Source of the DNA: Eubacteriales bacterium
GTDB lineage: Bacteria; Bacillota; Clostridia; Christensenellales; CAG-314
DNA: 64,000 bases
Reading direction: 5' to 3'
Assembly (NCBI GenBank): GCA_035446985.1
Contig: DAOTGG010000002.1
Coordinates: 1,925 to 65,924 of the forward strand
The position numbers and the translations under genes were made by a program. Within the stretch, counting starts at the first letter, position 1, and each line of letters begins with the position of its first letter. The notes under the pieces were generated by a model, which did not search any database, was not told where the DNA came from, and saw only the letters and a program-made list of their open reading frames with translations. Positions 1,927 through 4,204 of the stretch are shown piece by piece.

Positions 1927-3417
1927 TTATACTCTTTTATTTTTATTTCTCTTTGCCGCCAGTTCTTCCATATCTTTGGTGTAATTAGGATAACGCCGCG
2001 CAAACCAATCGACGATATTTTTACGGTAAATAATCAACATTAGCGGAAGTAAAAGCATTACAACTCTTCCGAAAAAGCTGCGTGAAAACGCCACTACCGC
2101 GCCAAGCCATCTATTAGTGCCGATATATATGCGCGAAATCGAACTGACTTGAATAGTTTTGACAAAAAATTCCGCTTCCGTGCCTACGGAATAATTCGTT
2201 ATATCAACAACGACATGCGTTTGATCAACAATTTCAACTATTGTTTCAACGAAAACTTCGCCGTCTGATTCAAACAAAACGATATCTCCAAGTTTCGGGG
2301 AATAATTATTTCCAGCCTTTTCAAAGAAAGTTAAATCGTTCATATTTATCACGGGAGACATTGTCGTTGACTGGAATAAAATCGGTTTAACCGCTATTTG
2401 ATCAAGCCCGCCGAAATCCGTCGATAAAAGAACCGCAACGTTAAACGCAAGCAAAATTAACACCAACAACGCAATTACGGACGTAACGGCTATATTAATA
2501 ACTTGAGTAGGGTTAAGCGAACTTTTTTTCACGGTCTCGATCTTGTCGCTCATATAGTCCATATAATATCCGGCTTCTTTGACCTTCGTCATGCTAAATC
2601 TTTTTGATTTATAGCGTACAACCAAAAAATTAATGCCCAAACAAGCAAAGAAAATCACTGAGGAAATTATTATATATAAAAGCTTTGGGAAAACAAAAAG
2701 ATTCGATATGTCGCTCATCACAACGACGTCGCTTATTGCGCTGTAATAGCCTAGATGTGTTTGCAACACTTTTACCAAAACAAAAACGATAATAATTACC
2801 ACGCTCATAAATCGGCTTTTTTTGACAAAATTGGAAATCGTGAGCGATATCATATAAATCAGCAATATATCAGACAATCCAACGAAATAAAGGCTCGCCA
2901 AATATCGCGTTACAATCTGATAGCCTATAAGTCCACCCAACAAAAGACAACCGAGAAAACCTACTGAATAAACCAACAAAACTCGGAAAAATCTAGCCAA
3001 AAGTTTTGCGGTAATCATCTTGTTTACCGAATAGCCGTTTTTAATAAGCGGATACCAGCGGTTGTCGCTTATTTCTTGGAAAGTCAGCAACTGATAATGA
3101 GAAACTAAATAAATAACAAAAAGAGCTAACGCAACAAAATTGTATAAAAATACGACGGAAAAAATCGAAGCGGAAGTTAATTCCGGAAATGTTTCGCCGA
3201 AAACAGTATTATTAAGCGTGTTTAATACCAAGTGAAAAGCGATAGTGATTACAACGTAAAAAAACCCGTATAGAACGCCGTTTCTTCTACTGGCAGATTC
3301 CACTATATAAGCTTCTTTCAGCTCTCTATTAAAATAACTGTTTTTATAAATCATTTTTATTTTCAGTTCCGTTAGGGGCTTTCGTTTGTTCGTCGCTTGT
3401 TTTCGCGCTTGCTTCAT
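1927..3417 (-). CDS. Polytopic ABC-2-like permease fused to a C-terminal signal-peptidase-like (S26 fold) domain with substituted catalytic residues
   Basis: 496-aa ORF; an alternative start is MIYKNS at 3354, which would overlap the upstream stop by 11 nt. The N-terminal two thirds are multi-TM with an FQEISDNRWYPLIKNGYS segment resembling the ExxGTxE loop of ABC-2 permeases. The C-terminal segment QSTTMSPVINMND...LGDIVLFESDGEVFVETIVEIV aligns by eye with the neighbouring SipW (ESNSMEPTFNVGS...VGDVVTFKLTDGRIVTHRIVEV), but with Ser->Thr and His->Glu at the catalytic positions. A final TM helix follows. Confidence 0.55.
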   Translation of the reverse strand: MKQARKQATNKRKPLTELKIKMIYKNSYFNRELKEAYIVESASRRNGVLYGFFYVVITIAFHLVLNTLNNTVFGETFPELTSASIFSVVFLYNFVALALFVIYLVSHYQLLTFQEISDNRWYPLIKNGYSVNKMITAKLLARFFRVLLVYSVGFLGCLLLGGLIGYQIVTRYLASLYFVGLSDILLIYMISLTISNFVKKSRFMSVVIIIVFVLVKVLQTHLGYYSAISDVVVMSDISNLFVFPKLLYIIISSVIFFACLGINFLVVRYKSKRFSMTKVKEAGYYMDYMSDKIETVKKSSLNPTQVINIAVTSVIALLVLILLAFNVAVLLSTDFGGLDQIAVKPILFQSTTMSPVINMNDLTFFEKAGNNYSPKLGDIVLFESDGEVFVETIVEIVDQTHVVVDITNYSVGTEAEFFVKTIQVSSISRIYIGTNRWLGAVVAFSRSFFGRVVMLLLPLMLIIYRKNIVDWFARRYPNYTKDMEELAAKRNKNKRV

Positions 3418-4204
3418 TATTTTTTAACAGTTCCACAAGCTCTTTTTTTATAGCAAACAGCTTTTCTTTAAGCGTTATTTCTTTTACCGGCAATGCTTTT
3501 TGAGAAAAACCTTTGTCGATTCTTATATATTTTGTCGCGACTTTGCCAATAAGAGTAGCTTGTCCTGTAGCGAAAATAAACGCCATTTGTTCTTTTATCA
3601 TAGATTTGACTATGGCTTGAAAAATATTGATTTCTTTTTCGGTGAAAACTATTTCATTAAGTTCCGCAACGACGATATTGCTTTTTGTCAAATACGCTAT
3701 ATAAAGCTGTACTAGAATTTTTTCCTGATTAGTCAAATTGTGAATGGGAGTCAGAGATATATAATCCATTCCCAAAGCGCAAATTTCGTCAAGCAAAGTT
3801 TTTTGCATTTTCGCGTATTCTTTCGATTTGAGATTTTGCGTAAAAGTGGCGTATTCCAAAACGGTCATGTTTTCTATTAACATACTGTTTTGGTTAAAGA
3901 AAAACAGCTGCGGTAAAATGTAACGCTTGTTGCGTATCATACCGCGCTCAATCAAAACGCATTTACCGCTGTAATAATTTCTTAAATTAGCGATAATCTC
4001 CACCGTTAATTTTGATTCCAGCGGATTTTTGCTGTATAAGCCTACCGTTTCGCCTTTTTTTACTTCGAGCGTGACGTTTTTTAACGTAGGCTCAAAAACA
4101 CCGTCAGTCAAGTCCCCTTCTTCCGAGACAATGTCTCTAAGACTTACTGCGGTATTATAAGTGTCCATCGGTATTGGTTTTTCGTCTTTAAATAACTTAG
4201 CCAT
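3344..4204 (-). CDS. ABC-transporter ATPase-fold protein with degenerate Walker A, signature and Walker B motifs
   Basis: 286 aa. LKNVTLEVKKGETVGLYSKNPLESKL occupies the position of the P-loop but lacks GxxGxGK[ST]. LTNQEKILVQL replaces LSGGQ, and IVVAELNE replaces hhhhDEP. The general ABC layout is retained (Q-loop-like LPQ, MTVLEY). Confidence 0.6.
   Translation of the reverse strand: MAKLFKDEKPIPMDTYNTAVSLRDIVSEEGDLTDGVFEPTLKNVTLEVKKGETVGLYSKNPLESKLTVEIIANLRNYYSGKCVLIERGMIRNKRYILPQLFFFNQNSMLIENMTVLEYATFTQNLKSKEYAKMQKTLLDEICALGMDYISLTPIHNLTNQEKILVQLYIAYLTKSNIVVAELNEIVFTEKEINIFQAIVKSMIKEQMAFIFATGQATLIGKVATKYIRIDKGFSQKALPVKEITLKEKLFAIKKELVELLKNNEASAKTSDEQTKAPNGTENKNDL

Follow-up and report, generated by a model that had tools for sequence, protein, structure and literature searches.

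Loss of catalytic motifs in an ABC ATPase-like protein and in a permease-fused SipW-like domain encoded within a conserved five-gene SipW cassette

The hand-off of substrates from dedicated SipW-type signal peptidases to extracellular assembly is poorly understood, and few accessory factors, among them TapA and SipA, are known. The locus described here, part of a 64,000-nucleotide stretch of DNA (the window), raises the question of what an ABC ATPase-like protein without ATP motifs (pseudo-ABC) and a membrane protein carrying a catalytically degenerate SipW-like domain (MEM) do beside a live SipW and two secreted paralogs (SEC-long and SEC-short). The most likely role for the two is that of a non-catalytic accessory scaffold of a dedicated SipW pathway, which would serve a c-di-GMP-controlled surface structure.

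The pseudo-ABC and MEM reading frames were found on the minus strand, at the coordinates given in the earlier note on this DNA, as part of the operon set out in Table 1. The SipW stop codon and the pseudo-ABC start are 4 nt apart, and the pseudo-ABC and MEM frames overlap by 11 nt. The order of the five genes (SEC-long, SEC-short, SipW, pseudo-ABC, MEM) is identical at every locus with enough flanking sequence, in a sample of 22 GTDB species (Bacillota: Clostridia MAGs and Desulfosporosinus) and additional metagenome contigs. The family comprises about 80 representatives at 50% identity; single-protein word-index homology searches gave 5 relatives per protein, which suggested a tiny family, but profile searches overturned this impression. 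Purifying selection on the pseudo-ABC and MEM genes is strong, with dN/dS values of 0.061 and 0.093 versus a 76-87% ortholog, and pseudogene decay was rejected on these values. A reading of the locus as a defence system was also dropped, since PADLOC returned only weak Csn2 noise for the pseudo-ABC nucleotide-binding domain (pseudo-NBD). Literature searches on SipW or signal-peptidase-like proteins with ABC/ABC-2 components, on pseudoenzymes, and on c-di-GMP riboswitches with SipW yielded nothing relevant to this architecture, and the five-gene cassette appears to be undescribed so far. The strict synteny, the c-di-GMP-I riboswitches and the truncation of the live SipW are points that go beyond the earlier note.

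Table 1. Features of the cassette; nucleotide positions are those of the window.
Feature	Position (nt)	Strand	Basis and remarks
Two sigma-70-like promoter candidates	6677-6648 and 6591-6563	(-)	Upstream of riboswitch leader; 11/12 consensus matches each
c-di-GMP-I riboswitch aptamer 1	6461..6547	(-)	RF01051 over its full length (1-87 of 87), 69.2 bits; gathering score 35
c-di-GMP-I riboswitch aptamer 2	6318..6405	(-)	RF01051, 66.1 bits (gathering score 35), full length 1-87 of 87
Terminator-like hairpin, CCUCGAA...UUCGGGG then U-run	6288..6322	(-)	Read by eye; overlaps 3' end of aptamer 2
SEC-long, 300 aa	5354..6256	(-)	Putative SipW-cognate-type signal peptide ..SGSLA↓VYTT
SEC-short, 165 aa	4735..5232	(-)	MKK start, preceded by GGAGG; longest ORF to 5244
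SipW, live minimal ER-type signal peptidase, 164 aa	4209..4703	(-)	TIGR02228, catalytic boxes
Pseudo-ABC nucleotide-binding domain, 286 aa	3344..4204	(-)	ABC profiles, HMMER, AF2 and Foldseek, family alignment
Walker A place, GLYSKNPLESKL, pseudo-ABC residues 55-66	4007-4042	(-)	HMMER alignment to PCAT1 and other ABC chains
Family-specific conserved stretch ERGMIRNKRYILPQLFFF, pseudo-ABC	3896-3949	(-)	
Degenerate Q-loop, pseudo-ABC	3878-3904	(-)	
Signature place, LTNQEK, pseudo-ABC residues 157-162	3719-3736	(-)	HMMER alignment to PCAT1 and other ABC chains
Walker B place, IVVAELNE, pseudo-ABC residues 177-184	3653-3676	(-)	HMMER alignment to PCAT1 and other ABC chains
Degenerate H-loop, pseudo-ABC	3560-3580	(-)	
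MEM residues 1-250: N-terminal amphipathic helix and six-TM type-V (ABC-2)-like domain	2605..3354	(-)	Model, Foldseek, topology
Cytoplasmic loop TFQEISDNRWYPLIKNGY, MEM	3031-3084	(-)	Highly conserved; probable coupling helix
MEM residues 251-414: basic cytoplasmic linker, TM7, extracytoplasmic dead SipW-like beta-domain	2113..2604	(-)	Profile, BLASTP, model, Foldseek
MEM residues 415-475: C-terminal TM helix (NRWLGAVVAF...), basic cytoplasmic tail	1927..2112	(-)	Profile coverage, model, topology
Terminator-like hairpin at operon end	1879..1903	(-)	9-bp stem then U-run; 24 nt past MEM stop codon

The earlier note had proposed that the 286-aa protein keeps an ABC fold in which the Walker A, LSGGQ signature and Walker B motifs are replaced, and this is confirmed by HMMER, which places all three motifs, and by the predicted structure. 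The AF2 model, which reaches moderate quality with a pLDDT of 65.6 and a pTM of 0.67, contains the RecA-like core and helical subdomain of an NBD, and a Foldseek search with it returned 1094 PDB matches at E<=0.001, of which the best 50 are all ABC NBDs. Wzt and TagH are the best structural matches (E 5.6e-11 to 1e-8), while PCAT1 chains are the best PDB sequence matches in HMMER searches. NCBIfam ABC models match with E values down to 3e-7 at scores far under their cutoffs, and PF00005 gives 15.8 bits versus a curated cutoff of 25; the profile of the pseudo-ABC family itself matches a true ABC ATPase at 2e-11.

The loss of ATP motifs is wider than had been claimed, as the Q-loop, catalytic Glu and H-loop are degenerate too, together with the three motifs named above, in 54/54 family members, none of which carries a P-loop, LSGGQ, catalytic Glu or H-loop His. 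The Walker A place has the family consensus [GAS]xxxxEx[KR]L instead of the canonical GxxGxGK[ST] (0/54), with a near-invariant Glu in place of the third Gly (51/54). The reported loss of the P-loop thus stands insofar as no member has a canonical one, but the Lys is displaced by one position rather than simply absent. The signature place reads L[TS]xxEK; Asn stands in for the Walker B Asp in 49/54 members, with E or D at this position in the clade of the window; and the places of the catalytic Glu, the Q-loop Gln and the H-loop His are taken by L/V/F/A, T/S/N and Q/N/T/G, respectively.

The partner protein, described in the earlier note as 496 aa long, almost certainly starts at M22 of that reading frame (nt 3354) and has 475 residues, as judged from the MIY start, which is invariant in the five closest orthologs, the retention of Met1 by 90% or more of 50 aligned members, and a database gene call of the same length. 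Its structure model (pLDDT 87.8, pTM 0.85) shows a six-helix domain followed by TM7, a SipW-like domain and TM8, and a positive-inside tally places the N-terminus inside the cell and the dead domain outside. The suggestion of a transporter-like scaffold is supported by Foldseek matches of the N-terminal half to NosY, PmtCD and ABCG2 (probability at least 0.97), whereas the C-terminal half matches SipA (4n31), SEC11C (7p2q), signal peptidase I of E. coli and S. aureus, LexA and viral S26 proteins, with SipA ranking second among all PDB matches of the model. The E values for both domains are just 0.02-0.1, yet the probabilities are about 1 and the matches are consistent.

The apparent retention of a type-V ABC architecture in both subunits invites the proposal that pseudo-ABC and MEM still work as an exporter of the secreted paralogs, of cleaved signal peptides or of some other amphipathic molecule, either through an unconventional nucleotide site or with a canonical NBD borrowed from another locus. 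The putative coupling loop of MEM is strongly conserved, the degenerate motifs hold conserved positions of their own (Glu in 51/54, K/R in 49/54), and amphipathic peptides are moved by type-V exporters such as PmtCD, one of the structural matches. However, the ATP motifs are degenerate throughout the family, with an acidic residue in place of a phosphate-binding glycine, and the cassette has no conserved canonical NBD. Heterodimerisation with such a domain from elsewhere would, moreover, leave two defective composite sites, because Walker A and signature are both lost in pseudo-ABC. Continued export activity is therefore regarded as improbable.

The SipW-like domain of MEM shows a comparable loss. 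Its relationship with the adjacent SipW, noted earlier from motif similarity, is supported by BLASTP (E 6e-4), which pairs QSTTMSPV (residues 328-335 in 475-aa numbering) with ESNSMEPT, LGDIVLF (355-361) with VGDVVTF, and FVETIVEIV (368-376) with IVTHRIVEV. In the 496-aa frame, residues 313-482 align with positions 7-178 of 189 of the NCBIfam SipW profile (E 4.5e-7), though the score of 29.6 bits lies under the cutoff of 190; the profile of the MEM family in turn recovers true peptidases of the SipW type, with E values from 1e-10 to 1e-16. Predicted structure and topology agree in placing the S26 beta-fold outside the membrane and after a TM anchor. Within this domain, the nucleophile Ser of the SxSMxP box is Thr331 (nt 2362-2364) and the general-base His of the T-H-R box is Glu370, the two substitutions that had been reported, and the GDN box has become VDITNY. 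Across 66 fused members, the nucleophile position holds Thr in 51, Ser in 5 and other residues in 10 (D, L, V, K, R, E, H, A), while the base position is occupied by E (27), A (8), R (7), K (7), Q (4) or S (4), by His once, and also by G, M, T, V or C. Ser and His occur together in none of the fused members, compared with 24 of 38 standalone matches.

The old active-site motif is nevertheless well kept in the family as SxTMxP, and the conservation of Thr at the former nucleophile position leaves some room for unusual chemistry in MEM. One may accordingly ask whether the domain is an active protease that uses a Thr nucleophile with Glu, Asp or another base to cut at a second site or in a different substrate. 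The frequency of Thr, and of Ser in the five members just mentioned, would suit such an enzyme, as would an invariant D340, a D384 kept in 54/66 members, and a Glu370 that is invariant in the clade of the window. The base position, however, varies from E, A, R, K, Q and S to G, M, T, V and C, so that there is no conserved catalytic partner, and ten members carry a non-nucleophilic residue at the Ser position, which together make this activity highly improbable. The pseudo-enzyme reading of both proteins is, from the family alignments, strongly supported beyond the genome of the window: homology to the S26 and ABC families is significant, the catalytic positions are degenerate as the earlier note had stated, and the loss is shared by family members (54/54 without the ATP motifs, 66/66 without the Ser/His pair), although the exact replacing residues vary.

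Adjacent to these two genes, the live SipW is recognised as a signal peptidase I by TIGR02228 (77.3 bits versus a cutoff of 51.85) and carries Ser77 (ESNSMEP), His117 (VTHRI) and a KGDNSINSID box. The THR and KGDN..D boxes are present in 25/25 cassette SipWs and the SxSMxP box in 22/25. The enzyme has a single N-terminal TM helix without a C-terminal one, and the SipW profile matches it at 8e-27, yet only over positions 2-126 of 189. This truncation is general, as 24 of the 25 cassette SipWs end 20 aa past box E and one ends after 19 aa, and no C-terminal TM helix is found in any of them, though the dead domain of MEM has one. The C-terminal TM helix of MEM is the counterpart of the C-terminal anchor of Bacillus-type SipW that the live SipW of the cassette lacks.

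This complementarity, in which the dead domain spans profile positions 7-178 and retains the helix that SipW has lost, can also be taken to mean that the MEM domain is a non-catalytic subunit on which the truncated SipW depends for its activity or specificity in a bacterial 'signal peptidase complex', supplying the C-terminal anchor and shaping the membrane around the active site without acting as a substrate chaperone. The tight gene spacing and the structural match to SEC11C of the human signal peptidase complex fit such a subunit, and eukaryotic ER-type peptidases depend on non-catalytic partners. Archaeal single-TM ER-type peptidases, on the other hand, can work alone, and a role restricted to SipW itself leaves the good conservation of SxTMxP unexplained. 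We consider this restricted role rather unlikely; it overlaps with the accessory or assembly platform that we prefer, and telling the two apart would be difficult without experiments.

The presumed clients of the SipW are two secreted proteins that share 38% identity (E 3e-23). SEC-long consists of a conserved N-terminal domain of about 170 aa and a lineage-specific C-terminal domain, which in two Desulfosporosinus orthologs is a CBM_2 domain (1.2e-11), whereas SEC-short is a candidate for the major subunit. The signal-peptide/mature junction ..AGTLA(M/V)YT is highly conserved in 47 secreted proteins, and the D. orientis ortholog of SEC-short (Desor_2095) bears the UniRef name 'SipW-cognate class signal peptide'; the corresponding model TIGR04088 gave no match to the paralogs in the NCBIfam scan. 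The end of the signal peptide aligns with the cleavage junction of TasA (GGGTWA↓AF in TasA, TGTLA↓VY here). Support for describing these proteins as TasA-like does not extend further, however, since hhalign against TasA (a query residue-for-residue the same as 8AUR) aligned the signal peptide alone, with a probability of 5.7%, and Pfam, NCBIfam, PDB phmmer and PDB profile searches gave no match to TasA, camelysin (PF12389) or AbpA. A relationship of the paralogs with TasA or camelysin is accordingly unsupported beyond the signal peptide.

The highly conserved mature N-terminus, together with a dead domain that faces outward between two TM helices, raises the further idea that the complex is a TapA-like membrane anchor or nucleator of a putative polymer, which would remain attached to the initial subunit and so anchor the structure on the cell. 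The cassette lacks a TapA-like gene, and TapA itself is described as working by strand complementation (PMC10151520). SEC-long could fill a TapA-like role equally well, though, and the assignment of this role to the complex seems very improbable.

In addition to the coding genes, the operon has a leader with two tandem c-di-GMP-I aptamers, both of which match RF01051 over its full length and above the gathering threshold. The hairpin that follows is probably the expression platform of the riboswitch; it was not called by the terminator scanner. The promoter candidates further upstream are pattern matches alone, as sigma-70-like sites in the region are no more numerous than expected from shuffled sequence. 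A c-di-GMP-I riboswitch was also detected at 4 of 11 other cassettes scanned (L009, L013, L015 and L028) and was not found at the remaining 7. No c-di-GMP riboswitch control is known for the Bacillus tapA-sipW-tasA operon. A diguanylate cyclase gene lies close to the cassette in the window, and GGDEF genes also occur near cassettes L007 and L034; because a motif scan of the loci (+/-6 kb) found just 2 cases, this association was rejected as a conserved feature. Control of the entire cassette by c-di-GMP would make an adhesion or biofilm structure the most likely product.

Taken as a whole, these observations lead us to propose a non-catalytic MEM/pseudo-ABC complex that, with SipW, serves the two secreted paralogs as an accessory or assembly platform, a proposal to which we give an even chance of being correct. 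The body of this complex would be a former type-V (ABC-2) exporter, in which the six-helix permease probably dimerises and bears a cytoplasmic NBD-fold subunit unable to bind or hydrolyse ATP, while two added helices would hold an extracytoplasmic SipW-like domain without the ability to cleave. Co-translated with the minimal live SipW, the complex would act as its accessory subunit or as an assembly platform. The cleft of the dead peptidase may retain the beta-strand-binding function of a signal peptidase and hold the pre-protein junction AGTLA↓(M/V)YT..GSVVAKEF, either presenting it to SipW or keeping the new N-terminus until it is passed on to a surface polymer or matrix. For the signal-peptide helix, a lateral site in the membrane could be offered by the ABC-2-like helices, with the pseudo-NBD as a structural clamp and nothing more. 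SEC-short would then be the bulk subunit, and SEC-long, with its variable C-terminal binding domain, the adhesin. The substrate-binding, chaperone or assembly role suggested by the earlier note is, by analogy, reasonable.

More tentatively, the cassette may encode a so far unrecognised bacterial signal peptidase holo-complex and assembly machine, in which an ABC-2 exporter has fully become an ATP-independent scaffold whose pseudo-SipW docks the truncated SipW and holds c-di-GMP-induced subunits by their cleavage junction and nascent N-terminal strand. If so, processing would be directly coupled to polymerisation, and the resulting surface fibre or matrix of Clostridia and Desulfosporosinus would belong to a new Gram-positive class. 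Irrespective of this, the cassette is a compact, phylogenetically conserved five-gene system in which two enzyme folds are reused as non-catalytic parts. It is a clean natural case in which pseudo-enzymes have evolved twice over and an ABC transporter scaffold works without ATP. Its control by c-di-GMP riboswitches also makes it a candidate determinant of adhesion or biofilm formation among anaerobic Bacillota. Among the carriers are Desulfosporosinus strains that have been cultured and sequenced (D. orientis DSM 765, Desor_2093-2098) and that would allow the proposal to be tested.

Compared with known systems, the best structural matches of the pseudo-NBD and of the permease half are type V (ABC-2) exporters (Wzm-Wzt, TagGH, NosFY, PmtCD and ABCG2), which have a layout like that predicted for MEM, with six TM helices and an intracellular N-terminus. 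Pseudo-ABC and MEM differ from them in the loss of the ATP motifs and in the gain of two TM helices and an external peptidase-fold domain. Fusion of a peptidase domain to an ABC transporter with leader-bearing substrates is also seen in the C39-like domain (CLD) of HlyB-type T1SS and in PCAT, and the C39-like domain of HlyB is catalytically dead and binds substrate. In CLD and PCAT, however, the domain is cytoplasmic, N-terminal and of the C39 cysteine-protease fold, on a type-IV exporter with an active ATPase, whereas MEM combines an extracytoplasmic, C-terminal S26 fold with a type-V scaffold and a dead ATPase. The eukaryotic signal peptidase complex (SEC11, SPC22/23, SPC25 and SPC12) joins an ER-type Ser/His peptidase with non-catalytic membrane subunits, as is proposed here, and its SEC11C is a structural match of the dead domain of MEM; the eukaryotic accessory subunits are not known to be homologous to S26 or ABC proteins.

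[quoted passage not shown] The cassette likewise pairs such a peptidase with secreted proteins, and the signal-peptide ends of the two systems align. In contrast, the mature domains of the cassette paralogs have no detectable match to TasA, Bacillus SipW has the C-terminal TM helix that the cassette SipW lacks, and the ABC-like and dead-peptidase genes of the cassette are absent from the Bacillus operon. The dead peptidase domain has a counterpart in SipA of S. pyogenes, an inactive peptidase homologue that is essential for pilus polymerisation (PMC4049620). SipA (LepA-like) has, like MEM, a signal-peptidase fold without catalytic residues, it retains a peptide-binding cleft, and its gene sits within a surface-fibre gene cluster (PMC4049620), as is presumed for MEM. 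SipA differs in that it stands alone, crosses the membrane once and belongs to the P-type (Ser/Lys) lineage; its catalytic positions carry Asp and Gly, and its partners are sortases. The dead domain of MEM belongs to the ER/SipW type, with Thr and a variable residue in the corresponding places; it is fused to an ABC-2-like permease and encoded alongside a dead NBD and a live SipW. SipA is nonetheless a direct precedent for the proposed non-catalytic role of the dead domain.

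The cassette consists of five genes in the same direction on the minus strand, flanked by a Ku gene and an MgtC gene, in a context that is chromosomal rather than that of a mobile element. The genes for the signal peptidase (SipW), an ABC-like protein and a membrane protein are closely packed: only 4 nt separate the SipW stop codon from the ABC-like start, and the ABC-like and membrane-protein genes overlap by 11 nt, given a membrane-gene start at 3354. This later start is almost certainly the correct one: its MIY sequence is invariant among the five closest orthologs, at least 90% of 50 aligned members retain Met1, and the gene as called in the database encodes 475 aa; the length of 496 aa in the earlier note is revised to 475 aa accordingly. 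Among the neighboring genes, the 206-aa protein has no Pfam match, and a gene alike in length and position lies beside MgtC in a relative with 55% identity (L005, L006). The three tandem lipoproteins, which share the motifs DITYDDNGDP and LEERGYEIQK, are likewise without a Pfam match.

Features of the cassette and its surroundings, with positions counted within the window
Feature	Position	Strand	Remarks
Ku (NHEJ) gene	983-1798	-	directly downstream of cassette; TIGR02772, 1.5e-84
Terminator-like hairpin	1903-1879	-	3' of last stop codon; terminator scan
Membrane protein	3417 or 3354 to 1927	-	
ABC-like protein	4204-3344	-	286 aa
SipW	4703-4209	-	164 aa
Perfect 14-bp inverted repeat	4441-4475		within sipW coding sequence
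Short secreted paralog	5232/5244-4735	-	165-169 aa; 38% identical to long one, E 3e-23
Long secreted protein	6256-5354	-	300 aa
Second leader hairpin	6322-6288		read by eye
c-di-GMP-I aptamer 2	6405-6318	-	66.1 bits (gathering score 35), full-length
c-di-GMP-I aptamer 1	6547-6461	-	69.2 bits (gathering score 35), full-length
MgtC gene	6811-7464		
206-aa protein	7720-8340	-	between MgtC and GGDEF gene
dCache_1-GGDEF diguanylate cyclase	8582-10543	+	GGDEF E 8e-39
Three tandem paralogous lipoproteins	28010-30642	+	~260 aa each; LFGC lipobox
UvrA and UvrB	37204-42058		

Despite a Pfam ABC_tran score below threshold (15.8 versus 25 bits), the homology of the ABC-like protein to ABC nucleotide-binding domains (NBDs) is real: NCBIfam ABC models (best E 3e-7) and PDB ABC chains (phmmer) match it, its family profile retrieves a canonical ABC ATPase at 2e-11, and a Foldseek search of its AF2 model (pLDDT 65.6, pTM 0.67) against the PDB returns 1094 matches at E<=0.001, of which all 50 listed are ABC NBDs, led by the type-V NBDs of Wzt and TagH (5.6e-11). 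The EcsA-RasP model (9a6w) is also among the structural matches. Alignment to PDB ABC chains places the three strings that the earlier note had quoted for Walker A, the signature and Walker B exactly on those motifs, and that note's description of an ABC ATPase devoid of a P-loop extends to the entire family, as none of 54 members aligned with a canonical NBD retains one. Walker A reads [GAS]xxxxEx[KR]L, with the third Gly replaced by Glu in 51/54 and the basic residue displaced by one position; the Q-loop Gln is T/S/N, the LSGGQ signature L[TS]xxEK, the Walker B Asp is Asn in 49/54 (Glu or Asp in the clade of the window), the catalytic Glu is L/V/F/A and the H-loop His Q/N/T/G. In the profile search, members score at E <= 6e-47 and the next match at 2e-11, so that this pseudo-ABC family is cleanly set apart from true ABC ATPases. 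That the pair is an unconventional exporter which is still active is considered improbable.

The membrane protein combines two folds. The NCBIfam SipW profile matches residues 313-482 of the 496-aa reading frame (E 4.5e-7; profile positions 7-178 of 189), and BLASTP reproduces the alignment of this region with the adjacent SipW that the earlier note described (E 6e-4). A five-ortholog profile run on 1.84 billion cluster representatives retrieved 82 proteins at E<=1e-30, rising to 139 at E<=1e-10; the strongest matches are mostly full-length proteins of ~460 aa with the same architecture, and the weaker ones are standalone SipW-type peptidases (C-terminal part only) or standalone membrane proteins (N-terminal part only). 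The confident AF2 model (50-sequence alignment; pLDDT 87.8, pTM 0.85) comprises, in order, an N-terminal amphipathic helix, six TM helices, a basic cytoplasmic linker, TM7, a beta-rich domain placed outside the cell by a positive-inside tally, a C-terminal TM helix and a basic tail. In Foldseek searches of the PDB, the N-terminal half matches the type-V ABC-2 permeases NosY, PmtCD and ABCG2, and the C-terminal half S. pyogenes SipA (4n31), human SEC11C (7p2q), the E. coli and S. aureus SPase I and LexA, with modest E values (0.02-0.1), probabilities of ~1 and mutually consistent matches; a viral structure library again yields S26 and LexA-like proteins. On a more distant branch (L032, 1617-4440), a 355-aa relative (P0172) has the TM domain without the peptidase-like domain and lies downstream of a 584-aa protein with a P/Y/Q-rich low-complexity N-terminus and another degenerate NBD, which suggests a broader group of ABC-2 pairs lacking ATP motifs.

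The claim that the fused domain is catalytically dead holds across the family, since, of the 66 fused members with both catalytic positions aligned, none combines Ser and His, as against 24 of the 38 standalone matches in that alignment. The nucleophile position holds Thr in 51 of the fused members, Ser in 5 and another residue in 10; at the His position, Glu accounts for 27 of the 66 alongside A (8), R and K (7 each), Q and S (4 each), G and M (2 each) and T, V, C and H (one each). With its general base thus unconserved, the domain is best called a pseudo-peptidase. A Thr-based protease would be in keeping with the prevalence of Thr and at odds with the variable His position, and is the least probable of the alternatives weighed here. 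The boxes SxTMxP, NDLxFF (D340 invariant), GDIVLF and VDIxNY are kept, and these cleft motifs together with the conserved Thr suggest that the old substrate groove is still in use. Gene decay is ruled out for both proteins by dN/dS relative to the ortholog in L011, at 0.061 for the pseudo-NBD (87% amino acid identity) and 0.093 for the membrane protein (76%), with dS near saturation (~1.5-1.8).

The live SipW exceeds the curated archaeal-type SPase threshold, and cassette SipWs retain the THR and KGDN..D boxes in 25/25 cases and the SxSMxP box in 22/25. They terminate with ...KIPLT 20 residues past box E (GDN..D) in 24/25 cases (19 in the other), and the SipW of the window covers only positions 2-126 of the 189 in the SipW profile; the cassette enzyme therefore lacks the C-terminal TM helix that is present both in Bacillus-type SipW and in the dead domain. 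This distribution would fit a reading in which the truncated SipW depends on the fused domain as a non-catalytic subunit, a reading that overlaps with the scaffold explanation favored below and is considered unlikely as a separate one. The inverted repeat within sipW (AGTATGGAACCTAC...GTAGGTTCCATACT) extends across the stretch that encodes the catalytic SMEPT box and is flagged on both strands by the terminator scan.

The secreted proteins, the probable substrates, share a strikingly conserved junction, ..AGTLA(M/V)YT(T/V)xIDNxAEGSVVAKEF.., and a KIAP(S/T)E motif; the long paralog has a variable C-terminal domain (CBM_2 in Desulfosporosinus, 1.2e-11). Their description as TasA-like is not confirmed, as searches of Pfam, NCBIfam and the PDB (phmmer and profile) gave no match to TasA, camelysin or AbpA, and hhalign to TasA (query verified residue for residue against 8AUR) aligned the signal peptide alone. 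That alignment sets TGTLA|VY opposite GGGTWA|AF of TasA, whose chain in 8AUR begins at A28, which argues that these are SipW-cognate-type pre-proteins, with cleavage predicted after TLA. A role of the pseudo-ABC and membrane proteins as a membrane anchor or nucleator is judged very improbable.

Synteny was analyzed with HMMs of the five proteins, run on ortholog-bearing contigs and on 22 loci from a scan that took a single genome for each GTDB species. All loci with sufficient upstream sequence show the order long secreted, short secreted, SipW, pseudo-ABC and membrane protein, except that the long paralog is instead downstream in L001 and L030, and that in L021 the sole secreted-protein gene found is downstream and oppositely oriented. 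The cassette occurs in Clostridia, Eubacteriales and Oscillospiraceae MAGs as well as in many Desulfosporosinus species, among them D. orientis DSM 765 with its complete genome (Desor_2093-2098), where the annotations are limited to 'cellulose binding protein', 'SipW-cognate class signal peptide', 'signal peptidase I', 'hypothetical / ABC transporter domain-containing' and 'Peptidase S24-like'. Immediately upstream of the cassette in a single MAG (L009, 2673-4633) is an EcsA/EcsB-type ABC pair (ABC_tran and PF05975 EcsB), a link that may be coincidental.

Both c-di-GMP-I aptamers, which the earlier note leaves unmentioned, lie within a 550-nt leader upstream of the first cassette gene. An AT-rich hairpin and U-run come after each of them, and the hairpin of aptamer 2 overlaps that aptamer at its 3' end. 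The same riboswitch class is found directly upstream of the secreted-protein genes in four other loci (L009, L013 in tandem, L015 and L028) and was not detected by the scan in seven other cassettes. In several lineages at least, the cassette is therefore under c-di-GMP control, a mode of regulation that points to adhesion or biofilm. The diguanylate cyclase gene is located ~2.3 kb from the riboswitch-led operon, and GGDEF genes also occur near the cassette in L007 and L034 (GGDEF-EAL); as a conserved cassette feature, such a neighbor is not borne out across loci.

The dead folds, purifying selection, fixed synteny with tight gene junctions, outward-facing dead domain and c-di-GMP control lead us to infer a scaffold, and a general accessory or assembly role for the pair is given about an even chance. 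The pseudo-ABC and membrane proteins would form an ATP-independent scaffold descended from a type-V exporter, with the highly conserved cytoplasmic loop TFQEISDNRWYPLIKNGY of the membrane protein as the putative NBD contact, and the pseudo-SipW domain would bind the pre-protein junction as an extended peptide, either to offer it to SipW or to hold the new N-terminus for assembly. Full-text literature searches returned no description of such an architecture, and the main text of the TasA/ABP neighborhood paper contains neither 'ABC' nor 'permease' and describes no dead-peptidase partner. Dedicated SipW operons are known individually, as are dead signal peptidases and degenerate NBDs; what is new, to our knowledge, is an NBD stripped of every motif, paired with a permease-fused dead ER-type peptidase and conserved as a riboswitch-controlled cassette. 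The nearest functional precedent is SipA, and the dead C39-like domain of HlyB comparably holds the substrate of an ABC transporter.
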